DNA of 64,000 nucleotides from contig CM100124.1 in assembly GCA_046056395.1 (NCBI GenBank), positions 574,968 through 638,967 of the forward strand, in the 5' to 3' direction. Under the pieces are notes generated by a model. The model was not told where the DNA came from. It made no database searches and worked only from the letters and a program-made list of their open reading frames with translations. Both the position numbers and the translations under genes were made by a program. Positions 13,904 to 64,000 of the stretch are shown piece by piece. Origin of the DNA: Mugilogobius chulae. Lineage: Eukaryota. Position 1 is the stretch's first letter. Every line of letters starts with the position of its first letter.

Positions 13904-14005
13904 GACCTGACGGCCATCGGAGTCACTAAACCTGGACATCGCAAGAAGATTTCTCTGGAGATCACTCAGCTCAACATCGCAGAGTGGCTCCCGGAGTTTA
14001 TCCCG
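13904..14005 (+). CDS. caskin1: Caskin exon, second half of SAM domain 1
   Basis: cag|GAC CTG...CCG|gtaaga; translates to [34 protein letters not shown] (Caskin1 reads [34 protein letters not shown]); phase 0/0. Confidence 0.85.
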
Positions 14006-15500
14006 GTAAGAAACGCAAACATACATGTAAACAACAACAAACAAACATCGCAGAGTGGCTCCCGGAGTTTATCCCGGTAAGAACGCAACGTACATGTAAA
14101 CAACAACAAACAAACATCGCAGAGTGGCTCCCGGAGTTTATCCCGGTAAGAAACGCAAACATACATGTAAACAACAACAAACAAACATCGCAGAGTGGCT
14201 CCCGGAGTTTATCCCGGTAAGAAACGCAAACATACATGTAAACAACAACAAACAAACATCGCAGAGTGGCTCCCGGAGTTTATCCCGGTAAGAAACGCAA
14301 CATACATGTAAACAACAACAAACAAACATCGCAGAGTGGCTCCCGGAGTTTATCCCGGTAAGAAACTCAAACATACATGTAAACAACAACAAACAAACAT
14401 CGCAGAGTGGCTCCCGGAGTTTATCCCGGTAAGAAACTCAAACATACATGTAAACAACAACAAACAAACATCGCAGAGTGGCTCCCGGAGTTTATCCCGG
14501 TAAGAAACGCAAACATACATGTAAACAACAACAAACAAACATCGCAGAGTGGCTCCCGGAGTTTATCCCGGTAAGAAACGCAACATACACGTAAACGACA
14601 ACAAACAAACATCGCAGAGTGGCTCCCGGAGTTTGTCCCGGTAAGAAACACAAATATCTACTGTAAACAACAACAAACAAACATCGCAGAGTGGCTCCCG
14701 GAGTTTATCCCGGTAAGAAACACAAACATACACGTAAACAACAACAAACAAACATCGCAGAGTGGCTCCCGGAGTTTATCCCGGTAAGAAACGCAAACGT
14801 ACATGTAAACAACAACAAACAAACATCGAGATGCTCCCGGAGTTATCCGGTAAGAAAAAACAACATGTAAACAAAACAAACAAACATCGAGAGTGGCTCC
14901 CGGAGTTTATCCCGGTAAGAAACGCAAACATACATGTAAACAACAACAAACAAACATCGCAGAGTGGCTCCCGGAGTTTATCCCGGTAAGAAACGCAAAC
15001 ATACATGTAAACAACAACAAACAAACATCGCAGAGTGGCTCCCGGAGTTTATCCCGGTAAGAAACGCAAACATACATGTAAACAACAACAAACAAACATC
15101 GCAGAGTGGCTCCCGGAGTTTATCCCGGTAAGAAACGCAAACATGATACACAGTCCGGAGTTTATCCGGTAAGAAACCAAATACATGTAAACAACAACAA
15201 ACAAACATCGCAGAGTGGCTCCCGGAGTTTATCCCGGTAAGAAACGCAAAACATGTAAACAACAACAAACAAACATCGCAGAGTGGCTCCGAGTTTATCC
15301 GGTAAGAAACGCAAAATACATGTAAACAACAACAAACAAACATCGCAGAGTGGCTCCCGGAGTTTATTCCGGTAAGAGAAACGCAAACATAACATGTAAA
15401 CAAAAAAAACAACACAACAAACATCGCAGAGTGGCTCCCGGAGTTTATTCCGGTAAGAGACGCAAATATGTACTGTAAACAACAACAAACAAACAAACAA
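13966..15500 (+). repeat. 71-bp minisatellite, about 21 copies, each unit = last 32 nt of the SAM1 exon + GT donor + ~39 nt of intron
   Basis: unit atcgcagagtggctcccggagtttatcccg|gtaagaaacgcaaacatacatgtaaacaacaacaaacaaac repeated head-to-tail from the genuine exon end. Confidence 0.9.
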
Positions 15501-17964: not shown

Positions 17965-20900
17965 TTAATAGAAAAATTGGATGTTGCTGTGGTGGTCCAG
18001 GCCAAGCTGAACCAGGCGGCTGTTTCCAATCTGTCTCTCTCTCTCTTGGCGTCTGCGGATGGAGTCGACGATCGGGTCCACGCTGACGGAGCTGTTTCCA
18101 TCAGAAGCTATAGCCGTCCGGTCCTCTACACGATCACCACCAGTCGGCTCAGGGATGACAGATCTCGAATACTTCTCCTGCAGCTGGGTCATCAACGCCT
18201 TGGCTGCGTCCCTCTCCTCGCCGATCCTCCGTATCTCTTCGTTGGCTTCGACACACTCCTCTGTCTTCTTCACCAGCTCATCCCTGACTCTCTCAAACGT
18301 CCGTCTGCTCTTCATAAGCTTGTCTTCGGCTTGGTCGCAGTTCTCTCTGTACCTCTTCATCTCTCCCAGGGCATTGTCGCGCTCCTCTATGGCTTCGACG
18401 CACTCCTGTCTCTTCTTTATCAGCTCATCCATGTTTTGGTCGAACTTCTTTATGAGCGAGTTTTTGGTTTGTCCCACTCTTCTTTCATTCTTCTTTGCTC
18501 GTGCTTAGCGTCTTCGCACTCCTTTCTGTACTTCCTCTTCTCAACCCAGACACTTTCGTAATCCTGTCTGCACTTTCTCAGCTCTTCTCTAGTTTAATCA
18601 CATTCCTCTCTACTCTCTCTCAGCTCCTCTCTGATTGTCCTCCTCTGCGGTGTTTTTGTCCGCTCTAAGCCTTCACCTTTCAGACAGCTCTTGTTGTCCT
18701 TTCGCTCCGTTTCTAGCTCTTCCTTAAGCCAGTCTCGCTCACGATTACAAGCGAAGACTTGTTACTTTCCGTTTCCTCAACTTCTGAACTTTTCTTCTGT
18801 CGACTCTTGATCTCGTCCATTTCCCTTTCGTGACCCTCCTTCAGCCGCTTCAAGTCGTTCTCCAGCTTCTTCTCCAGTCCCTGACGTACTTCCTTAAACT
18901 CGGCATATTTACCTTTCATGACGGCTTTCATCTCCTCTTCCATCTCTCGTTTGGTGGAGCTTAAGCGTTCTTCTTTGGCTTTCTGGAGCTGTTCTTTTTC
19001 CTCGTCGAGCTCAGCCTGGATTTGTTCCAATTGTTGCTTGTGCATTGCTTTTAGTTCTTTTGCATTTTCCTCCTGCTGCTTTTGAAGTTTAGCTTCGAGT
19101 CTGGTATTTTCTTTCCCGATTTCATCCTCCAGATTCTCGCGGAGCTGCTCTAGTTTAGCCTCAGAGTCCTCTTTAAGCTTTTCTTCTTCCTCTCTCAACT
19201 TTGCAGACAGCGACTGACGTAGAGTCTGGAGTTGCATATCATTCTCAGCCTTTAGAAGCTTCTCTTGAGCTTTGAGACTTTCTCCAAGTCGCTCTAATTG
19301 TAGCTCGGATTCCTGCTTAAGTCTTTCTTCTTCCTGCGCTCTTTTGCTAAAATCGATTCACGCAAACGTTCTAGTTTCTCTTCAGTCTCTGCCTTCAGAC
19401 GATCCTTCTCCTCTTTGATCAACCTCTCTCGCCTCAGCCGATCAGTTCTAAGCTCTTCTTCAAGTCGCTCTAATCTGTCTTCCTCCTCTTTTCTCTTTTC
19501 TCTCATTCTCTCGTCAGTCTCAGCCTTTAGACGCTCCCCCTCCTTCCAGACCATCTCCTCCTGCACAATCCGATCGATTTGGATGGCTTCCCGTAAGTCC
19601 CGTAGTTCTTTCTCAGATTCCCGCTTCAGTCTTTCTTCCTCCTCTTTTCTCTTTGACAAAAACGACTGACGCATAGTTTCCACTCTCTTGTCAGTCTCAG
19701 CCTTTAGACGTTCCTCCTCCTTCCAGATCATCTCCTCTTGCACAATCCGATCGATTTGGATGGCTTCCCGTAAGTCCTGCAGTTCTTTCTCAGATTCCCG
19801 CTTCAGTCTTTCTTCTTCCTCTCTTCTCTTCGCTGACAGTGACCGGCGCAGTTCGCTCAGTCGTTCTTCGCTTTCAGCCTTCAGCCTCTCTTCTTCGTCT
19901 CTCTTCAGTGTTAGTTCTTCTGTCACTTCCAAACTCAAATCAGGCTGGAGCTTTTGAGACGAGGGCTGGTCAAACTTGTCGACCTGGGTGATCTGGGAGA
20001 AAGATCTTTGTCTTCAGTCATGCTTACTGCTTCCTCGTTGAAGTCATTGTCATAATTTGATGGACTGTCATCACAGAAAGAGTCTAAGTCTACGTCTGTG
20101 TTGTCGTCATCTTCTTCAATCTCGGGCTTATCAGACAAGTCTGATGAAGCTCGGGAAAGACTGAGCGAACGAACGGAAGAATGGTCTATTTCCGCTTCTA
20201 AAACCTCACTCACCTGCCCTTCCTTTTCAAAAACGTCATTGTCGTAGCTTAACGGTGGTGTTGGATCATCAAAGACTGAATTTAGCGATTTTAAGTCCAG
20301 ATCTGTGTCTTCTTCCAGTGAACTACGATCTCCATTATCTGCAGGTAGTTTCAAATCATCCCCCCAAAAGTCATCTTCTGTAGCTTTTCCGTCTCCTCCC
20401 TCATCATCTTCTTTAAGAACCTCGAGTGAAGCTCGTCATAAAAGTCTGATAAATCTTCAGAAAAACTGGACGATCTGGGAGAAAGATCCTCATCCTCTTC
20501 ATTGCCTTCTTCAGAGAACTTCTCGTCTCTTGCCTTTAACCTGATCTGTTCCTCCTCATCCAGCTCCTCGTTGTAATCAAAGTCTGAATTTAGCGATTTA
20601 GGTCCAGATCTGTGGCTGCGTTATTAGGAGCCATGTCTTCTTCCAGCGAACCAAGATCTCCAATATCTAAGTTTATATTTTCTGCTGCTTTGAGAGAAGC
20701 AGCAGTGAGAAAGAGCGTGTCTTTCTTCGTCTTTGTTCTTGCGGTTGAACGTTGTTCCTGCGCTGCTTCACGCCTGGCCTTACACCTCTGCAGTAGACGG
20801 TCAATGGAGTCTTCTTCCTCGTCGTCTGTTTCTGTCTCTGAAGGCAGGGCTGTGTTATTCTCTTCGGTGTCTGAGTGCAAGTCGCGTTCGGTTGAATATT

Positions 20901-21406
20901 GTTCCTGCGCTGCTTCACGCCTGGCTTTAAACCTGGCTTTAAACCTCTGCATTAGAAGGTCAAGGGAGTCTTCTTCCTCGTCGTCCGTTTCTATGTCCGA
21001 AGGCAGGGCTGTGTTCATCTCTTCGGTGTCTGAGTGCAAGTCGCGTTCTGTCGTTTCCATTTTCGCTGCTCCTTGGTTTTTCACATTCAGCTCTTCGTCG
21101 CTCGAAAGCACATCCAGGAGCTTTCTTCTCGCTCGTCTCTGTGAAATCTGAATCATTACCGACCTCTGTGGGAAAGAACGTGTCTTTCTTCGTCTTTGTT
21201 CTCGCGGTTGTGAGTTGTTCCTGCGCTGCTCTGCGCCTGGCTTCACACCTCTGCACTAGACGTTCAAAGGAGTCTTCTTCCTCGTCGTCCGTTTCGATCT
21301 CCGAAGGCAGGGCTGTGTTCATCTCTTCGGTGTCTGAGTTCAAGTTCAGCTGCAGGTCTCGTTCTTGCGTTTCCATTTTCAGTGCTGTTTTGGTTTTCGT
21401 ATTCAT
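17965..21406 (-). CDS. intronless antisense gene nested in a caskin intron: acidic N-terminal repeats plus long E/K/R-rich coiled-coil; open frame broken in at least 5 places as assembled
   Basis: consecutive minus-strand ORFs 20960-21406, 20590-21246, 19935-20354, 19294-19938, 18713-19237 and 17965-18477 abut or overlap in different frames; three ~150-aa N-terminal repeats (METxERDLHSDTEEMNTALPSxIETDDEEEDS..RCKARREAAQEQ), then EERLKAE/REEEERLKRESEKEL heptad-like repeats. Confidence 0.6.
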
Positions 21407-21600
21407 CTCCTCGTCGCTCGAAGCACGTACGGGAGTTTGTTCTCGCTCATCTTTGTGAAATCTGATCTATCTGTGTCGTACAGCGTCAGATAAACTGTTT
21501 TTACGTGGGAGCTCTGTGTCTGTGTGGCGTTCGGTTCGCTTCTCGTCGAGTTGTGACAGAATCGCTGACGTCACAGCCTAGAAAAGCCTAGAAAGGTTGT
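21407..21600 (-). promoter_or_regulatory. putative promoter/5' UTR of the nested gene, containing a palindromic CRE TGACGTCA
   Basis: tgacgtca at ~21567-21574, ~160 bp upstream (on the minus strand) of the ATG at 21406; an upstream in-frame ATG is followed quickly by a stop. Confidence 0.3.
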
Positions 21601-23800: not shown

Positions 23801-23939
23801 AATTTCATTCAGATACGTAAGTCCCGAAGTCAAAGATACTCAAAAGAGTTTCTACTGAAAAAGAATGTCCAGTTAGTCATGTTGTGCTAAAAATGTAAAT
23901 CTACGAAGCTTAAACCTGGTGTCCACAACACAAGTTTAT

Positions 23940-24345
23940 TCTACTGGCAGGAGGACTTGGGGCGTGGCTTAGCTCTCTTGTATTCTATTGGCAGGAGGAC
24001 TTGGGGCGTGGCTCAGCTCTCTTGTATTCTATTGGCAGGAGGACTGGGGGCGTGGCTTAGCTCTGTTTACTCTATTGGCAGGAGGACTTGGGGGCGTGGC
24101 TCAGCTCTGTTTATCTGTATTAACAGGAGGACTTGGGGGCGTGGCTCAGCTCTCTTGTATTCTATTAACAGGAGGACTTGGGGCGTGGCTCAGCTCTCTT
24201 GTTTTCTATTAACAGGAGGACTTGGGGCGTGGCTCAGCTCTCTTGTTTCTATTACAGGAGGACTTGGGGCGTGCTCAGCTCTCTTGTATTCTATTGGCAG
24301 GAGGACTTGGGGGCGTGGCTTAGCTCTCTTGTATTCTATTAACAG
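23940..24345 (+). repeat. 43-45-bp tandem repeat, about 10 copies, each unit = polypyrimidine tract + AG acceptor + first ~24 nt of the SAM2 exon
   Basis: unit ctcttgtattctattggcag|GAGGACTTGGGGCGTGGCTCAGCT; the final copy runs into the genuine exon (GAGGACTTGGGGGCGTGGCTCAGCTCCATAGGCCTGCTGCAG, translating to [14 protein letters not shown]). Confidence 0.85.
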
Positions 24346-24484
24346 GAGGACTTGGGGGCGTGGCTCAGCTCCATAGGCCTGCTGCAGTATCAGAGGAGAC
24401 TTTGTGAAAACGGATACGACTCGATGGAGATCGTCAAAGACCTGAGCTGGGAGGATCTGCAGGAGATCGGCATCACCAAACTGG
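24346..24484 (+). CDS. caskin1: Caskin exon, SAM domain 2 (major part)
   Basis: aacag|GAG GAC...AAA CTG G|gtcagg; translates to [47 protein letters not shown] (Caskin1 reads [47 protein letters not shown]); phase 0 start matches the 14005 donor. Confidence 0.85.
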
Positions 24485-27834: not shown

Positions 27835-28547
27835 GACGGAGACTTGAGCGCTGAGATTCCCTGTGCTCTCTCTCGACCCGGAGAGTCTCTCAGTCTGAGT
27901 CTGTCCCACAGCGATGAGAGCCTGGCCGAGCGCTCCCGAGGGTCCGGACGCTCTCAGGACACGCCCCAGGACACGCCCCTGGACCCGCCCACAGACCTGC
28001 CCGAGTCCAGAGACCAGACCCGGACCAAACACGTCCCTCAAGGCACCGCCACGGTCTTCAAGTACCCGGCCATCCCAGCGAAGCCAAGAGTGTGTGGGTC
28101 TCCTCATGGCCCCGCCTCTTCTCCACGTGGTCCCGCCTCTTCTCCCCGTGGCCCCGCCTCCTCCCCCCGTGGCCCCGCCCTCCTGAAGCAGGCGCAGGTG
28201 TCCCGGGGCTCTCTGTCGGACGGAGAACAGGGCGAGGATGAGGAGGAGACGGTTCTTCCTCCATCCTACGCCACACTGAGCCGCCGCCGCTCGCAGAGAG
28301 GCGCTCCCGGAGGTGGCGAGGGGGAGCGCGTGGGGCGGAGCCAGTCCTTCGCCATCAGAGCGAGAAAGAAAGGCCCGCCCCTCCTCCACCCAAACGTCTC
28401 AGCTCCGTCAGCTCTCCGAGTGACGAGCAGAGCGACAGCAGTGTGTCCGACAGCCCGGGACGAGTACGGACCCTCGCCAAGGCCCTGGAGCCACGCCCAC
28501 AAGAGCCACGCCCTCAAGAGGCCTGTCCGCAAGAGCCACGCCCACAG
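27835..28547 (+). CDS. caskin1: Caskin exon, Pro/Ser-rich region (RSQSFAIRARKKGPP motif)
   Basis: cttcag|GAC GGA GAC; ORF 27823-28611 includes ...SPRGPASSPRGPASSPRGP...YATLSRRRSQRGAPGGGEGERVGRSQSFAIRARKKGPPLLHP (Caskin1 reads RVGRSHSVRAP...RSQSFAVRPRKKGPPPPPP); donor CACAG|gtacgc; the frame at the 3' end is inconsistent with the start, implying an indel. Confidence 0.75.
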
Positions 28548-28722
28548 GTACGCTCACACCTGCTTTAGCCACGCCCACAGGTACGCTCACACCTGCTTTA
28601 GTCCGGGTTAGATCTGGATTAGACCTGGTTTAGAACTTGTACTACGAAGCTAGATTGTGCTGTTGTTGTCTTTTCCGTTCAGTCTTTAATTCTGATTGGC
28701 TGTTCCTTGTGTCCAATCACAG

Positions 28723-32665: not shown

Positions 32666-32900
32666 GCTCCGGCCGCTCGTCTCCAGGTCTGTCTGTGTCC
32701 GTGCTCCAGAGCGTGGCCTTCTCCTCGCCCCCCCGCTGCCTAAGCCCCGCCCTCAGCCCCGCCCGCTCCCCCTCCCGCAGTCACATGACCTCTCCGGGGT
32801 CACATGACTCTGAGGTGCAGCTGCGACTGGATCAGACCAGTGTGAGTCTGGAGGCGGCTCTGCAGGACGTGGAGCGCAGCCTGGAGCGGCAAACGGACTG
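32666..32900 (+). CDS. caskin1: Caskin exon (penultimate)
   Basis: ctcag|GC TCC GGC translates to (G)SGRSSPGLSVSVLQSVAFSSPPRCLSPALSPARSPSRSHMTSPGSHDSEVQLRLDQTSVSLEAALQDVERSLERQTD; phase 1 start matches the 29660 donor (G|GC); donor GGACTG|gtaata; the end phase mismatches the last exon by 1 nt. Confidence 0.7.
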
Positions 32901-33300
32901 GTAATAACCGGTTATTCATGTTTATTAAGCTCTTATTCATGTGTAACAAGCCTGGAGCGGCAAACGGACTGGTAAGAACTGGTTATTCATGTTTATTAAG
33001 GTTTATTCATGTGTTACAAGCCTGGAGCGGCAAACGGACTGGTAAGAGCCTGTTATTCATGTTTATTAAGGTCTTATTCATGTGTAACAAGCCTGGAGCG
33101 ACAGACCGACAGGTAATAACCGGTTATTCATGTTTATTAAGCTCTTATTCATGTGTAACAAGCCTGGAGCGACAAACGGACTGGTAATAATCTGTTATTC
33201 ATGTTTATTAAGCTCTTATTCATGTGTAACAAGCCTGGAGCGGCAAACCGACTGGTAAGAGACCCTTATTCATGTGTTATTAAGGTCTTATTCATGTGTA
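32878..33300 (+). repeat. ~70-bp tandem repeat, 6 copies, unit = last 21 nt of the exon + GT donor + ~45 nt of intron
   Basis: cctggagcggcaaacggactg|gtaa(t/g)a(a/g)c.ggttattcatgtttattaag(c/g)tcttattcatgtgtaacaag recurs at ~32878, 32951, 33021, 33092, 33163, 33229. Confidence 0.9.
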
Positions 33301-33775
33301 AAAGTACTGGCACTATTTTATTTATTGAACCTTTATTTTACCAGGAGGTCCCTTGAGATAAAACTTGGACAGAACAATTCAGTGAAACATTTAAACCATG
33401 ATAAACATATATATAAAGAAAAGTAAAGTATCCAGCTCAAGAATGACATTTAAAAGTTTCAATGAAGACATTTTTAAGAAGAAACTTCAAAATAGTCAGT
33501 ACCAGAAGTTTTAAAGGTTTCTGAATGTTGTTTCAAACCCAGGGAGCTGCCGTTCAGCCCAGTTCAGTGTTAATCAACTTAAACAGAAGCTACTGTGAAG
33601 AACGAGAGTTATATCCAGTGTTCGCTGGAGTCAGGAGCTGCACATGTCTGAGGCAGTTTATCCATTATGGCTTTATATATAAAAATAAGCCAGTGCTGTT
33701 GTGTTCTGAGGCTCTAAGGCAGGAGACCAGAGCAGCTCACAGGGGTGGGTCCTGAACAGTGCGTTTGTAATAAAT

Positions 33776-57489: not shown

Positions 57490-57950
57490 ATGTGCACTGA
57501 CTTCAACCTGGTTTAGACCTGGTTTAGGCCTGGTTTAGGCCTGGTTTAGTCCTGGTTTAGACCTGGTTTAGACCTGGTTTAGTCCTGTTATAGTCCTGGT
57601 TTAGTCCTGGTTTAGACCTGGTTTAGTCCTGGTTATAGTCCTGGTTTAGACCTGGTTTAGTCCTGGTTTAGACCTGATTATAGTCCTGGTTTAGACCTGG
57701 TTTAGTCCTGGTTTAGACCTGGTTTAGTCCTGGTTTAGACCTGGTTTAGTCCTGGTTTAGTCCTGGTTTAGTCCTGGTTTAGTCCTGGTTTAGACCTGGT
57801 TTAGACCTGGTTTAGTCCTGGTTTAGTCCTGGTTTAGTCCTGGTTTAGTCCTGGTTTAGTCCTGGTTTAGACCTGGTTTAGTCCTGGTTTAGACCTGGTT
57901 TAGACCTGATTATAGTCCTGGTTTAGACCTGGTTTTAGTCCTGATTTTAG
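57490..57950. repeat. 11-bp satellite (CCTGGTTTAGA/CCTGGTTTAGT)n, about 40 copies
   Basis: direct reading; the same monomer is dispersed at 28598-28640, in mvp intron 1 (60760-61620, 62290-62480) and at 63360-63410. Confidence 0.9.
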
Positions 57951-58916
57951 TCCCTACAACCTTTAAAAAATCGTGAAATTAAAATCTCTCTAAACCCGAC
58001 TCGTCCTCCAGGCTCCTGCAGAGTCTCAAAAGTCTTAAAGGTCCCGTGTTAAACTGAATGAACTTCAGTCGTGTTATTCTGCTGTTCTTTTACCACATTT
58101 TTTTAAACTATTCTGCTTTTTAGGCTCTCTTATATTTTGTGGATATTTGTGGAAACTCCATCGTGTTTTTTCCACGCACTGAGAAGCTGTGGATTCAAAT
58201 GTAGGCAAATACAAGACTGGAAACACTGGAACGACATAAAAACATTTTCTGTTTGGACACTTCCTGAAAAATGCTAAACTTGTATGAATGAAGCAGAACA
58301 CAGCAGCAGCTTTGTTTCTGATGAATAATTATGTTAAAACAAGTATTAAAAAGGTGCGTAATTTAGCATCTTTGAATTTAAAATGGGAAATGTAAAGTTT
58401 TAAATGTTTTTTCTGAACATGAAGCAGCATTTTTAGACTTAAGACATGACCGACTGTAGATGGGTTTTTGGTGCGTTGGCCTGCGACATGTTTGTGTATA
58501 AAGCAGAGCTGTGGAATATATCGAATTTTAGATAATATCATGAATGTAGTTTTCAAGATATCCAAAAATGGAATATGGAGTATATCGTTCATAGTTAAAA
58601 TTGCCACAAAAAGAACCTAGTGTAAGAATAGAAAATAGAGAAAATGATGCAGTAACTTTCAATTTAGGACATAAATATAACATGTCTGCACTTCTGTGAT
58701 TCTTTTACAACATTTTACTTTGTTCACGTGACATCCCAGTATTCTCCAGACCGATAATACTTCACACAGATGTTTGTAGCTCAAATAAATCTTCAAAGTT
58801 GTAATACAAAAGTGATCAGGTCTAGTCATTTAAGGAAATCACCAGATTGAAACAGTTGAAATGATTTTTTAGATATTTAATGACAAAGTACAAAAATCAG
58901 AAATCTTCTTCACCGT

Positions 58917-60180: not shown

Positions 60181-60594
60181 ACCCACCTCTGGTCTAGATT
60201 CATGACAACGTTGTATTCTTCAACTTGAACACAGCCTATTGACGTAATAATCGTCTGAAGATCGTTATCGAGATGTGCCCAAAAAATATCAAGATATTCA
60301 TTTTTGTCAATATCACCAGCACAAGTATCAAGGTTTTATTTCATTAAAAAGAAGGATTTTGACAAGGCAAGAGATAACTGAGGGCTTAAAAAGTCTTACA
60401 TTTCTTACTTAAAGTTGTGCAGGAGCCATGTATCTCCTCTGTCTACAGTTCTAGAGAGTCATGTCTAAGAAGTCAGATCCTCTCGTTCTCCTCTTGTTCT
60501 TCTAACGTTCTCCTCTTGTTCTTCTAACGTTCTCCTCTTGTTCTTCTAACATTCTCCTCTCTTTCTTGTGTCTCCAGTTCTTTATTAAAGAGTG

Positions 60595-60758
60595 ATGTCT
60601 AAGAAGTCAGGTCCTCGAGTCGTGGACATGGATCTCCCTGTGGACGCCTCCATCATCAGGATTCCTCCTCATCACTACATCCACGTCTGGACCAGAACAC
60701 CAACATCGCCCGCGTGGAGACCGGACCCGCTGACCTACATCAGACAGGACAATGAGAG
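60595..60758 (+). CDS. mvp: major vault protein exon 1 (start codon at 60595)
   Basis: ATG TCT AAG AAG... translates to [54 protein letters not shown](R); human MVP reads [39 protein letters not shown], so the middle ([17 protein letters not shown]) is in the wrong frame as assembled; exons 2-3 confirm the gene; donor GAG AG|gtgagt. Confidence 0.8.
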
Positions 60759-61620
60759 GTGAGTTAGACCCAGTTTAGACCTGACTTAGACCTGACTTAG
60801 ACCCACGTTCTGGACCAGAACACCAACATCGCCCGCGTGGAGACCGGCCCGCTGACTTATATCAGACAAGACAATGAGAGGTGAGAAAGACCGGACCTAG
60901 ACCTGACTTAGACCTGGTTTAGACCCACCTACATCAGACAGGACAATGAGAGGTGAGAGAGACCGGACTTAGACCTGGTTTAGACCTGACTCAGACCTAC
61001 GTCCTCGACCAGAACACCAACATCGCCCGCGTGGAGACCGGCCCGCTGACTTATATCAGACAGGACAATGAGAGGTGAGAGAGACCGGACTTAGACCTGA
61101 CTTTAGACCTGGTTTAGACCCACCTACATCAGACAGGACAATGAGAGGTGAGAAAGACCGTACTTAGACCTGACTTAGACCTGGTTTAAACCCACCCACA
61201 TCAGACTGGACAATGAGAGGTGAGAGAGACCGTACTTAGACCTGATTAGACCTGGTTTAGACCCACCTACATCAGACAGGACAATGAGAGGTGAGAGAGA
61301 CCGACTTAGACCTGGTTTAGACCTGGTTTAAACCCACATCAGACAGGACAACGAGAGGTGAGAGAGACCCAGTTTAGACCTGACTTAGACCGCTAGACCT
61401 GGTTTAGACCCACTACATGGACATGAGAGTGAGAAGACCTGACTTAGACCTGGTTGACGGTTTAGACCGGTTTAGACCCACCTACATCGCAGGACAATGA
61501 GAGGTGAGAAAGACCTGACTTAGACCTGGTTTAGACCGAGTTTAAACCCACCTACATCAGACAGGACAATGAGAGGTGAGAAGACTCGACGTAGACCTGG
61601 TTTAGACCTGGTTTGCTATG
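60700..61620 (+). repeat. ~70-180-bp tandem repeat, about 12 copies, each unit = 3' end of mvp exon 1 + GT donor + intron start (which is the 11-bp CTGGTTTAGACC satellite)
   Basis: units such as acctacatcagacaggacaatgagag|gtgagagagaccggacttagacctggtttagaccc; longer units (60800-60880, 60985-61090) repeat ~60 nt of the exon (ccagaacaccaacatcgcccgcgtggagaccggcccgctgacttatatcagacaggacaatgagag|gtgaga); further copies at 62290-62480. Confidence 0.9.
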
Positions 61621-62559
61621 ATAAAACTTTATTGTCCATATGAAAACGGAAATTTGCCTTACATATCTGCAACTGCTGCAAGTCCCACATACAACAGACT
61701 TCATTCATCAACATAAAAGATAAAAATACATGAATACATGCGGTAAGATCATGTGTTCTTCCTTTGGTTTAAAAATGTGATGGAACATGACACAAAAGAA
61801 TGTTTAGATTTATTCCTCCTGCTGCAGGGAAATCGAAAACGCCGTCCAGAGAGTAAGAACTCAAACTCATTGTTTAAAACATGATCTGTGTCTGGAGATC
61901 CTGTAGACCAGCCGTTCCCAAACTTTTTGGAGCCGTGCCCCCCCTATTGGCCCATAGATTGCCTGAGGCCCCTCAGTATTATTTCACACTCCATTCAAAG
62001 TTAGTTAGAATGTATATATTTCATATTAGCATTGGGAATCACTGCTGTACCAATGCCACTGTTTTCTTTGTTTGCAAATGAGTGAATGTGCTCTCAAGGG
62101 GAGGTCCTATTTTGGAGCAGATGTTCAGAAGCCTCTGAATCCTGTTCTTTTGTTTAACCGAAAGGCCACAGAACCAAGCCTTACTGCACTAAAGCAGCAG
62201 ACTTTGGATAGTGACTATATAGAACTGCTCCAAGATGTTTCTGTTGACTCCAAAAGAGCTGAGCCTCATCAGAAACACGATTCGTTGTTGCACAAATCTA
62301 CTTTCTTAGACCTGGTTTAGACCCACCTCACTCGACAGGACAAGGAGAGATGAGAAAGACCGGGTTTAGGCCTGGTTTAGACCTGGTTTAGACTTGACAT
62401 AGACACACCTTCATCAGACAGAACCACAAGAGGTGAAAAAACAGACTTAGACTTGGTTTAATCCTGGTTCAAGCCTGGTTTACACCTGGAGATGCATTTT
62501 TCTGTCTTCAGAGCCCGTTTCCTCCCGTGGCAAATTAGATTCATGTTTTGTAGTGCTAT

Positions 62560-62941
62560 ATTCATATTTTCATCTCTCGTGTCAGAGTCCTGTTTCCTCC
62601 CCTGTGGTCTTGTAGTGTTACATTTATATTTTCTCTCGTGTCAGAGTCCTGTTTCCTCCCCTGTGGTCTTGTTGTGTTATATTCAGTATTTCTCTCTTGT
62701 CAGAGTCCTGTTTTCTCCTCTGTGGTCTTGTAGTGTTACATTTATATTTTCTCTCGTGTCAGAGTCCTGTTTCCTCCTCTGTGGCCTTGTAGTGTTACAT
62801 TTATATTTTCTCTCGTGTCAGAGTCCTGTTTCCTCCTCTGTGGCCTTGTAGTGTTATATTTATATTTTCTCTCGTGTCAGAGGCCTGTTTCCTCCTCTGT
62901 AGTCTTGTAGTGTTACATTTATATTTTCTCTCTCGTGTCAG
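62560..62941 (+). repeat. ~60-bp tandem repeat, 7 copies, each unit = polypyrimidine tract + AG acceptor + first ~25 nt of mvp exon 2
   Basis: unit ttttctctcgtgtcag|AGTCCTGTTTCCTCC(T/C)CTGTGG(T/C)CTTGTAGTGTTACATTTATA repeated; the final copy is the genuine exon-2 start. Confidence 0.9.
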
Positions 62942-63137
62942 AGTCCTGTTTCCTCCGCTGCGGATGCTGATGGTGCCTCCGCGTCACTACTGCGTCATCC
63001 TCAATCCCGTTGCCCGCGACGACAACGACCAGGTCCAGTTCGACCAATCAGGGCAGGCCAAGCTGAGACACGCCGACCAGGAGATCCGCCTCACCCAGGA
63101 CCCGTTCCCCCTGTACCCCGGGGAGGAGGTCCAGCAG
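62942..63137 (+). CDS. mvp: major vault protein exon 2
   Basis: gtgtcag|A GTC CTG TTT translates to (R)[65 protein letters not shown] (human reads [67 protein letters not shown]); phase 2 start matches exon 1; donor CAG|gtatga. Confidence 0.9.
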
Positions 63138-63235
63138 GTATGAACCCTCTGTAACCCTCTGTACCCCGCTGTGACCCGGGGAGGTACTGAACCCTCCTGT
63201 ACGTGTCTGAACCCTCCTGTACGTGTGTTTTTCAG

Positions 63236-63358
63236 GACGTGACGCCGCTGCAGATCGTCTTTCCCGACACGGCTCTGAGGCTCCAGGCTCTGCTCGAGTT
63301 CACCGACTCCAAAGGAACCAGAGGACGGCCGGAGACGAGTGGCTCTTCGAGGGACCAG
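63236..63358 (+). CDS. mvp: major vault protein exon 3 (1-bp deletion frameshift near aaaggaacc as assembled)
   Basis: tttttcag|GAC GTG ACG CCG CTG CAG translates to DVTPLQIVFPDTALRLQALLEFTDSKG; the -1 frame then gives [15 protein letters not shown] (human reads [41 protein letters not shown]); donor CAG|gtctga. Confidence 0.85.
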
Positions 63359-64000
63359 GTCTGACTGAGTCCTGCTTTAGTCTGGTTTTAGTCTTGTTTT
63401 AGGGCGTATTCAGACCTATAAAATTTGGTCCGATTTAAACGATCCAGAATTCGTTTTTTCTGACAGTTCAGACTTTTTTTTAGGTCTGAATAAAGACAAG
63501 CGAACTCTGATCCGAATCAAACGATCGGACCGAGACCACCTCTTCAGGTCGGTCTCGGGCTGATTGCAAACGGATTCTGGTGCGGATCACTTATGATCTG
63601 AATACAAACGGCCTCGATCCGAAACGAACACGAAACACATGCTCTTTTTGGACCTGACAAGCCACCGTCACAACGCACAGTCACTAAGCACAATTCTAAG
63701 CACAATTTCCTATCTACACGGTTTATTCTGTTGTCTAGATTTGTCTGAAAACATAAAGATATTTTCTCGCGTTTGTTTCCATCAAATAAAGCACTTTCAT
63801 TTTCAGTCTTAACCCTTCGTGTTTGCACAATGAAACCAAAACAGTAACACTTGGACAGTCTTCTTACCGTGATGGAGTAGAGACGAGGATCCTTACAAAC
63901 CAGATTATCAAATTGCCTCCTTTCCTTACTCGTTTAAATCTATATGTCCAGAAAAATAAGAAAGCAAAGACAGGCTACTGTTCCATTGTGAGCACTGATG

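Follow-up and report, generated by a model that had tools for sequence, protein, structure and literature searches.

A probable junction-spanning minisatellite with arrays at both ends of mvp intron 1 in Mugilogobius chulae

Minisatellites whose first monomer spans an exon-intron boundary have been described in the human genes F7 (IVS7), CBS, IFI6, LMNB2 and PDGFA, among them the 37-bp VNTR of F7 intron 7, the 31-bp repeat of CBS IVS13, the repeat of IFI6 (6-16) intron 2, the 100-bp repeat of LMNB2 and the 81-bp repeat of PDGFA intron 4 (PMC1557585). In F7, the most upstream donor is the sole donor used (PMC1557585). In notothenioid fish, according to the summary in PMC6410882, a trypsinogen-like protease gene gave rise to the antifreeze glycoprotein (AFGP) gene (Chen, DeVries and Cheng 1997).

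Here we analyse a 64-kb stretch of Mugilogobius chulae DNA (contig CM100124.1; hereafter the window), in which exon 1 of mvp ends in GAGAG|GTGAGT and is followed by 12 further head-to-tail copies of the exon tail, the donor and about four 11-nt monomers (Table 1). By its sequence, this donor array belongs to the known F7 IVS7 type of junction-spanning minisatellite: the first monomer is continuous with the live exon and the donor is reiterated head-to-tail. As in the human examples, the first monomer spans the boundary, the repeated donors are intronic and head-to-tail, and the authentic site is the most upstream one; the human units (31-100 bp, 5-26 copies) are comparable to those of mvp. The mvp array differs in the exon-derived part of its unit (26-78 nt against 4 nt in F7), in its embedded 11-nt satellite, in having two unit size classes with a higher-order repeat, in pseudo-donors that deviate from the authentic donor at +6, and in a mirror array on the acceptor of the same intron, with junction copies nearly filling that intron. 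The mvp array resembles satellite higher-order repeats and ordinary intronic minisatellites in that its units run head-to-tail, its periodicities (11, 72, 122 and 194 bp) are nested, the young copies are homogenised and older ones lie at one edge; unlike these, its unit holds functional gene sequence, an exon tail and a splice site, and a live exon anchors the array at one end. With AFGP, as that summary presents it, mvp has in common the setting in a fish gene and the tandem amplification of a short intron-exon-junction element on the acceptor side. However, the 9-nt AFGP unit is there said to have become a new coding region under selection, whereas the mvp copies are intronic and contain stops. 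Recruitment as coding sequence of the AFGP kind was discarded for mvp, as read-through meets a stop immediately and the units hold stops in the exon frame. Introner-like elements (transposon-borne splice sites) were likewise set aside, the unit being found at one locus in the window and the intron position being shared with Scomber. We consider it likely that mvp intron 1 is a paired junction-spanning intronic minisatellite, with one array at each intron end and decoy sites that would normally be silent.

Table 1. Positions of the mvp features and of the related repeat arrays in the window.
Feature	Positions	Strand	Description and basis
caskin-2 donor array	13973-15495		21 copies; verified junction
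caskin-2 acceptor array	23937-24371		10 copies; verified junction
caskin-2 donor array	28534-28601		2 copies; verified junction
caskin-2 donor array	32878-33301		6 copies; verified junction
Pure 11-nt satellite array	57507-57953	+	CCTGGTTTAGA/TC, ~40 copies; 2.6 kb 5' of the mvp ATG
Start-codon segment duplication	60440-60616	+	ATG at 60461 and 60595; sequence inspection and TRF
mvp exon 1, coding part	60595-60758	+	ATG 60595; ends GAGAG; phase-2 intron
Main donor-junction array	60682-61614	+	Authentic unit and 10 copies; TRF, 25-mer recurrence, unit alignment
Authentic 5' splice site	60759-60764	+	GTGAGT, inside first satellite-like monomer GTGAGTTAGACC
Unique 691-bp segment	61615-62305	.	Splits the donor array
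Two old diverged donor-junction units	62306-62492	+	79-81% identity to unit consensus
Acceptor-junction array	62497-62941	+	~7.5 copies, 59-bp unit; TRF, 26-mer recurrence, alignment
mvp exon 2	62942-63137	+	tblastn against human MVP, 69% identity
mvp intron 2	63138-63235	+	10- and 20-nt repeats (TRF)

The product of mvp exon 1 was assigned to the Pfam family Vault_2, and its best match is Pampus MVP (85% identity). Its translation begins MSKKSGPRVVDMDLPVDASIIRIPPHHYIHV, and the coding sequence most likely starts at the downstream of the two ATG codons in Table 1 (MSKKSGPRVVDMDLPVDAS..., compared with MSKKGGTRGMEVEGPVEAS... in Pampus). The two copies of the start-codon segment are separated by a 22-bp minisatellite (3.8 copies; TRF).

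On the donor side, 13 junction copies were counted when degenerate ones are included, namely the authentic copy and 12 others, in line with a preliminary description of this DNA that had reported about 12 tandem copies of the exon-1 tail and its donor. From 60739 to 61580 there are nine occurrences, each with no more than one mismatch, of the 25-mer ATCAGACAGGACAATGAGAGGTGAG, which joins exon tail and donor (search tolerance, three mismatches; none expected from shuffles). Over 60681-61614, TRF detects repeats of period 72, 122 and 194 bp that score 613-776. Donors of the main array lie at 60759, 60881, 60953, 61075, 61148, 61220, 61291, 61358, ~61429, 61504 and 61576, and those past the 691-bp interruption at 62350 (ATGAGA, dead) and ~62432 (GTGAAA). 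Ten of the 12 extra donors read GTGAGA, one GTGAAA and one ATGAGA, with GT kept in 11 of 12; only the authentic donor carries T at +6. Two units of the main array are long (122 bp with 78 nt of exon; donors 60881 and 61075), the remainder measure about 72 bp with about 26 nt of exon, and a 194-bp higher-order repeat is present 2.3 times. The exon-derived part, earlier given as 26-60 nt, is accordingly either about 26 or 78 nt; the duplicated block begins at 60682, within exon 1, instead of at 60700; and the array, placed earlier at 60700-62480, is divided by the unique segment.

The authentic unit (60682-60803) runs from the H codon of …HYIHV… through GAGAG|GTGAGT into the intron, and subsequent units align with it. 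Its identity to the array consensus is 86%, and that of units u1-u10 is 87-97%, except for the deletion-ridden u8 (75%). Satellite monomers follow every donor. Variants are shared between neighbouring units, ACTTATATC and GGCCCG by both long units and CCGTAC by u4 and u5, and adjacent caskin-2 units have AAACTC or AAACAC in common; we read such sharing as the signature of real stepwise duplication. Within the window, the composite unit is confined to the mvp locus and the 11-mer satellite alone is dispersed. The RNA structure of the mvp array is not unusual (z = -0.54). As initially proposed, the units consist of the tail of the live mvp exon 1, its donor and intron sequence, the GT donor and the intronic satellite being retained. 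A processed pseudogene or retrocopy of mvp was rejected as their source, since the donor and the intronic satellite come directly after the exon tail in every unit; no exon-2 sequence was found after any exon-1 copy in the array.

The donor array may have originated as follows. The ancestral intron 1 would have been short, about 100-150 nt, opening directly with a few hairpin-prone 11-nt monomers. A single tandem duplication of 122 bp would have taken in the final 78 nt of exon 1, its donor and about 44 nt of satellite; we infer the mechanism of this founding event, while its breakpoints can be read directly, one in exon 1 (…ATC|CACGT) and the other within a satellite monomer (…TTAGACC|), and they share 1-2 nt of microhomology. 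Microhomology of this length does not separate repair pathways. The sequence shows that the 72-bp unit arose from a long one through loss of 50 bp between two AC dinucleotides (CCAC|GTTCTGG…GCTGAC|CTACATC). Independent capture of each short unit was rejected, given that this one deletion yields the exact CCAC|CTACATC junction, and the derivation of short units from the long one points to one capture event, not many. Amplification would then have proceeded by unequal exchange or replication slippage, including that of one 194-bp long-plus-short block. The 691-bp segment is probably an insertion that entered the array afterwards; it has no second copy in the window, and it showed no tRNA-like part, no terminal inverted repeats and no Rfam match.

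At the other end of the intron, a 59-bp segment spanning the acceptor would have been amplified independently, upstream of exon 2. This unit joins a 37-nt intron tail, which has CAG at its end, to 22 nt of exon-2 head (AGTCCTGTTTCCTCCxCTGxGG). TRF reports 6.9 copies of 59 bp at 91% identity, a 26-mer spanning the acceptor occurs seven times against none expected, and the copy most distant from exon 2 is the most diverged. The preliminary description did not include this acceptor-end array. Apart from the 691-bp segment, the intron (about 2,180 bases) consists almost wholly of copies of its own junctions, with the older, more diverged copies in its middle and the youngest adjoining the exons. 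It would have grown from about 100-150 to 2,180 nt mainly by tandem copying of both its splice junctions. A Scomber MVP-like gene shares the intron position after …DNER, and its intron 1 measures 530 nt, 395 nt of which are an unrelated 29-bp minisatellite; in Oryzias melastigma, the orthologue of the caskin-2 intron is 73 nt long and has no array. These introns support short ancestral introns and lineage-specific growth, the basis for the ancestral length being a paralogous or distant Scomber locus and an Oryzias intron of the other gene. Two MVP loci from ENA (L002 and L003), nearly intronless and from a distant organism, were left out of the comparison.

Computed splicing from any extra donor gives GAG AGG TGA, a stop at once, and the resulting mRNA would be expected to go to nonsense-mediated decay. 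Of the six extra acceptors, which lie at 62586-62881, five likewise lead to a premature stop, and the sixth (62822, -120 nt) would add 40 in-frame residues. The extra donors are probably silent, because the authentic donor comes first, matches U1 best and is the sole GTGAGT, and because the others bring an immediate TGA. Lying on the intron side of the outermost splice sites, the arrays would be tolerated, and their net effect would be intron growth. We think it very unlikely that the arrays are instead selected functional elements, whether as promoter-near donors that recruit U1 snRNP for more transcription or splicing or less premature polyadenylation, or as sites of regulated alternative splicing coupled to nonsense-mediated decay. 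The retention of GT in nearly all extra donors and the open, in-frame upstream acceptor are compatible with a function, and human IFI6 and CBS do use the first one or two minisatellite pseudo-donors (PMC1557585). However, the identity of the proximal units (bar the deletion-ridden one) indicates youth, so that intact GTs need no selection; the donor is lost or weakened in the two oldest units, no array of this kind is present at the related fish loci examined, and every pseudo-donor is met by a stop. For the paired, normally silent minisatellite that we favour, the prediction is that the outermost splice-site pair is used exclusively, and with 13 donors and 8 acceptors in one 2.2-kb intron, mvp intron 1 offers a test case for splice-site choice.

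It had been proposed that the 11-nt satellite is what expands, dragging the exon tail with it. The pure array reported near 57490-57950 was recovered as CTGGTTTAGAC/TC, and several observations are in keeping with a part for this sequence in the duplications. As single-stranded DNA it folds into a long hairpin (MFE -12.8 kcal/mol, z = -5.45; no equally stable fold in 200 shuffles), and of the four clusters that it forms in the window, three begin at most 15 nt downstream of a donor. The founding mvp duplication has its 3' breakpoint inside a monomer (TTAGACC|CACGT), and so has the caskin-2 duplication at 28534. Support for the dragging itself is only partial. The repeat unit is the whole 72-, 122- or 194-bp composite, and each unit keeps close to four 11-mers, so the satellite does not expand by itself inside the mvp array. 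Moreover, a single capture accounts for the exon tail, and three of the four caskin-2 arrays (13973, 23937 and 32878) and the mvp acceptor array are without any 11-mer satellite. Neither the 5' end of U1 snRNA nor branch-point and 3' splice-site motifs were judged similar enough to the 11-mer to claim a resemblance.

Exon 1 carries two mutually compensating 1-nt indels, a loss at ~60685-60688 and a gain at ~60723-60728, both within the 78-nt segment that is copied in the array. In the 13-residue stretch between them, the alternative frame is the reading of both long array copies; the indels in the ATG-bearing copy are probably assembly errors. A further indel lies in mvp exon 3, at ~63320. We did not accept the frameshifts as grounds for calling mvp a pseudogene: caskin-2 and a minus-strand gene have similar 1-nt indels at short homopolymers, and these, together with the duplicated 78 nt and deletion-only patches in the arrays, make assembly error the likelier cause. 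In similarity searches, the best matches to caskin-2 were only partial and the minus-strand ORF in the window had no match. Such errors raise the question of whether the arrays themselves are spurious products of assembly or consensus calling from noisy long reads, the true locus having one or far fewer junction copies. Short-homopolymer frameshifts do affect conserved exons of all three genes, and one caskin-2 unit has eight deletions and no substitutions, in an array with 27 indel events against 15 substitutions. Consensus errors, however, insert or lose single bases and do not yield head-to-tail units of 44-194 bp whose substitutions are nested and shared by neighbours and whose divergence is graded, and each of seven such arrays, with different loci and units, would need an independent artefact; we hold this explanation to be highly improbable. 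Array copy numbers and fine indels rest on one noisy assembly and may be wrong. The duplicated exon segment coincides exactly with the compensating indels, which marks such arrays as trouble spots for polishing and gene annotation.

Taken alone, the mvp array is a further example of a known curiosity; as a lead, the wider pattern is worth more. The same junction capture had been noted in caskin, and we find caskin-2 arrays at four junctions; two neighbouring genes have junction arrays. The window contains 23 arrays, and six of them span verified junctions where 0.3 would be expected, or 0.9 with three times as many junctions (P <= 1.5e-4). Two introns have arrays at both ends (caskin-2 14005/24346 and mvp 60758/62942), the exon-derived parts of the junction arrays are alike in size (14, 22, 23, 25, 26 and 33 nt), and the window holds no non-coding array with a true unit of at least 33 bp away from a verified or candidate splice junction, the 81- and 79-bp TRF rows in such places being (AG)n and 16-mer repeats. 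All of these observations would suit a lineage-specific mutational process that targets splice junctions and inflates introns from both ends genome-wide, for example through breaks where co-transcriptional R-loops or spliceosome-protected segments end, repaired as short tandem duplications. Nevertheless, they come from a single window analysed post hoc, and simpler geometry may suffice, as a 44-122 bp duplication that touches an intron of ~73 nt must span a junction; ancestrally tiny introns probably explain part of the excess. Selection, in addition, removes duplications that lie wholly within exons, and duplication has also affected the start-codon segment and coding repeats inside exons, so that instability is not specific to junctions. 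We therefore regard a junction-targeted process as unlikely. Equally doubtful is its form as a process of this fish lineage that acts at both intron ends and turns introns of ~70-130 nt into kilobase introns of junction copies; its trigger might be hairpin-forming satellites at intron starts or breaks linked to transcription or splicing. If it did operate genome-wide, introns would be able to grow from their own ends, which would constitute a general route of intron growth and a supply of junction amplification of the kind that once made a new gene (AFGP). Our literature search found no genome-wide description of junction-spanning repeats in fish.

Simple random duplication leaves unexplained both the share of arrays that lie on junctions (6 of 23) and the position of the 11-mer satellite just after three donors. 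Intron 2 of mvp also includes a degenerate extra copy of the exon-2 tail and donor, with a local alignment score of 30 where shuffles score 12.8 ± 2.4 and none of 500 reaches 30.

The window derives from a percomorph fish. The first intron of mvp (major vault protein gene; Pfam family Vault_2; best match Pampus punctatissimus MVP, 85%) contains an array of copies of the gene's own exon 1 donor junction. Exon 1 ends …TAC ATC AGA CAG GAC AAT GAG AG|GTGAGT, and a 25-mer over this exon tail and donor has nine occurrences in 60739-61580 with no more than one mismatch (0 expected). TRF reported nested periods of 11, 72, 122 and 194 bp in 60681-61614. [quoted passage not shown] Two of the units are long (122 bp) and carry 78 nt of exon, which encode 26 residues, then GTGAGA and about four monomers of an 11-nt satellite; the remaining units are about 72 bp each, of which about 26 nt are exon-derived. 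The preliminary description of some 12 tandem copies of exon tail and donor therefore stands, with exon lengths and coordinates corrected. The two distal units, beyond a 691-bp segment that splits the array, have decayed donors (ATGAGA, GTGAAA). Within the window, no TIRs, tRNA-like part, Rfam match or second copy of the 691-bp segment were found.

Comparison of the units shows a single origin for all of them. The long copies are homologous to the authentic exon from …CCACGT onwards, so the array was founded by one 122-bp tandem duplication, with one breakpoint inside exon 1 and the other inside a satellite monomer (…TTAGACC|CACGT…). In the short units the sequence is …TTAGACCCAC|CTACATCAG…, which corresponds to the long unit minus exactly 50 nt (GTTCTGG…GCTGAC), with AC flanking the deletion on both sides. 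The short units therefore derive from a long one by this deletion, not from separate captures. Both long units have ACTTATATC and GGCCCG where the authentic copy has ACCTACATC and GGACCCG, and both belong to a higher-order duplication, in which TRF counts 2.3 copies of a 194-bp block made of one long and one short unit. Adjacent units likewise have variants in common, such as CCGTAC in u4 and u5 (the fourth and fifth copies after the authentic one), and we interpret this nested pattern as the trace of stepwise duplication, not sequencing error. Amplification may have proceeded by unequal exchange or replication slippage.

An acceptor-junction array, overlooked in the preliminary description, sits in the same intron. 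Its 59-bp unit joins an intron tail of 37 nt, with …TCTCGTGTCAG (CAG) at its end, to the 22-nt head of exon 2, and the copy most distant from exon 2 is the most divergent. Donor-type units run up to 62492 and acceptor-type units start at 62497, so that the intron (2,183 bp), the 691-bp segment aside, is built almost entirely from duplicates of its two junctions. Divergence is graded along the intron, with the oldest copies in the middle. The ancestral intron was probably short, and the 691-bp segment would have entered the array by insertion.

Junction arrays, mvp exons, satellite clusters and associated features (window positions)
Feature	Position	Strand	Unit and copies	Remarks
mvp exon 1	60595-60758	+		matches human MVP
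mvp exon 2	62942-63137	+		matches human MVP
mvp exon 3	63236-63358	+		matches human MVP
mvp single-copy segment	61615-62305		691 bp	splits donor array
mvp distal donor units	62306-62492		n=2	beyond 691-bp segment; ~80% identity to consensus
mvp intron 1 acceptor-junction array	62497-62941		59 bp x ~7.5	
caskin-2 donor array	13973-15495		71 bp x ~21	33 nt exon + GTAAGA + intron sequence
caskin-2 acceptor array	23937-24371		44 bp x ~10	19 nt intron tail + ~25 nt exon head (EDLGAWLS…)
caskin-2 donor array	28534-28601		33 bp x 2	11-nt satellite directly after
caskin-2 donor array	32878-33301		71 bp x 6	exon tail …SLERQTDW, Caskin-tail exon
Satellite, pure array	57507-57953	+		
Satellite after caskin-2 28547	28560-28635	+		
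Satellite after mvp 60758	60765-60803	+		
Satellite after mvp 63358	63361-63402	+		
Coding region in caskin-2 intron	17968-21466	-		large, acidic coiled-coil

Minisatellites that reiterate a donor, with the first monomer across the exon-intron boundary, are known from human F7, CBS, IFI6, LMNB2 and PDGFA (PMC1557585), and the notothenioid AFGP arose via an amplified element straddling an intron-exon junction (PMC6410882). The mvp array has both structural features of the F7-type class, and as a single locus it is ordinary in kind, belonging to this already-known class. Unusual for this class are the long exon parts, the embedded satellite, the two unit sizes, the mirror array at the acceptor and the fact that junction copies make up nearly all of the intron. 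Readings of the array as a processed pseudogene, as AFGP-like coding recruitment or as a transposon-borne intron were each considered and rejected.

According to our computation, splicing from any non-authentic mvp donor would read GAG AGG TGA, an immediate stop, and five of the six extra acceptors would lead to premature termination. The sixth, at 62822 (-120 nt), keeps the reading frame open, and its use would add 40 residues. GTGAGT is confined to the authentic donor, and the GTGAGA of the copies has one fewer U1 match. Experiments on F7 IVS7 established a first-site rule (PMC1557585); from this rule, from the closer fit of the authentic donor to U1 and from the stop codons met at once, we infer that the extra splice sites are silent decoys.

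The same junction phenomenon had been claimed for caskin, and four such arrays were indeed found in caskin-2, a gene identified by its Pfam domains (SAM, Caskin-Pro-rich, Caskin-tail) and by tblastn searches using caskin-2 proteins of fish. In Oryzias caskin-2 the residues …EWLPEFIP|EDLGAWLS… follow one another without a break, so the 71 bp x ~21 donor array and the acceptor array lie at opposite ends of a single intron. Together with mvp intron 1, this makes two introns of the window that have arrays at both ends.

The 11-mer family (CTGGTTTAGAC / CTGACTTAGAC / CTGCTTTAGTC) forms four multi-monomer clusters in the window, three of which begin at most 15 nt downstream of verified donors and always lie on the transcribed strand; a 12-mer, CCTGCTTTAGTC, is identical at two of these three. 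The satellite had been proposed as the expanding entity that drags the exon tail along, a reading that the sequence supports in part. As single-stranded DNA, the pure satellite is predicted to form a long imperfect hairpin (-12.8 kcal/mol, z = -5.45), and the 3' breakpoints of the founding mvp duplication and of the caskin-2 duplication at 28534 each fall within a monomer; on these grounds a slippage-prone satellite at the intron start is a plausible trigger of both events. However, the satellite is absent from three of the four caskin-2 arrays and from the mvp acceptor array, and the mvp units hardly differ in how many 11-mers they hold; the satellite is thus neither necessary nor itself the expanding unit.

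The assembly consensus is locally noisy. The ATG-bearing copy of mvp exon 1 has a 1-nt deletion near 60687 (60685-60688) and a 1-nt insertion near 60726 (60723-60728), which compensate each other and swap a nearly invariant 13-residue stretch for another of 13 residues; both long copies retain the conserved frame. Both indels fall within the 78 nt that are duplicated, a stretch to which reads cannot be assigned unambiguously. Exon 3 has also lost one nucleotide near 63320, with no compensating indel. Elsewhere in the window, coding sequence is disrupted by comparable single-base frameshifts at short homopolymers: the Pro-rich exon of caskin-2 is hit, its Pfam match being split at a C-run, and the minus-strand coding region now falls into overlapping ORFs of different frames. 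Consensus error of this type is the most likely cause of the mvp frameshifts. In one caskin-2 array, a unit shows eight deletions and no substitutions (27 indel events versus 15 substitutions across the array), and mvp unit u8 resembles it. Accordingly, array copy numbers and small indels are not to be relied on. That the arrays as such are artefacts is unlikely, because variants that are nested and common to neighbours reflect stepwise duplication.

In a post hoc test on this one window, its 23 arrays were seeded randomly with their own unit lengths against 19 verified junctions; six of the 23 span a junction, compared with 0.31 expected, and none of 20,000 trials reached six. With the junction number tripled, the expectation was 0.91 (P = 1.5e-4 for six observed). 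If the introns were ancestrally small, part of this excess has a simple explanation: any 44-122 bp duplication touching a tiny intron would necessarily include a junction, selection would remove wholly exonic duplications, and those whose extra copies stay intronic, inward of the outermost splice sites, would be harmless. Tiny introns and selection together would yield a within-gene junction bias affecting both ends of one intron. The orthologous caskin-2 intron of Oryzias melastigma is 73 nt and repeat-free (caskin-2 locus L004, 12896-12968). Intron 1 of the Scomber japonicus MVP-like gene measures 530 nt, of which 395 nt (locus L001, 6191-6585) are a 29-bp x13.6 minisatellite unrelated to the junction; a second MVP-like copy begins about 9 kb downstream in this locus. 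Small-intron geometry fails to explain why large-unit non-coding arrays are absent outside genes within the window. Our literature search found no genome-wide description of junction-spanning arrays in fish, and we regard their local density and the donor-adjacent satellite as real leads.

Other repeats and duplications occur in the window. The minus-strand coding region contains an in-frame 177-bp coding repeat (19507-19830); a homologue search with one 239-aa ORF of this region (19297-20013) found none. At 2412-2865, a 164-bp unit is repeated 2.8 times; every copy has a 49-nt open segment (TDDGYTLYGHVAFPNA) as well as acceptor-like and donor-like sites, and the repeat may represent a triplicated micro-exon. 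A TC-rich array of 2.1 kb (7795-9915) reaches the polypyrimidine tract/acceptor region of the caskin-2 exon at ~9912-10053. Intron 2 of mvp (63138-63235, 98 nt) is made of 10- and 20-nt repeats and holds a degenerate second copy of the exon 2 tail and donor (alignment score 30 versus 12.8 +/- 2.4 for shuffles). Finally, the mvp start-codon segment (60440-60616) is duplicated, with ATGs at 60461 and 60595 and a 22-bp x3.8 minisatellite between them; the upstream copy, if transcribed, would provide a 14-codon uORF.
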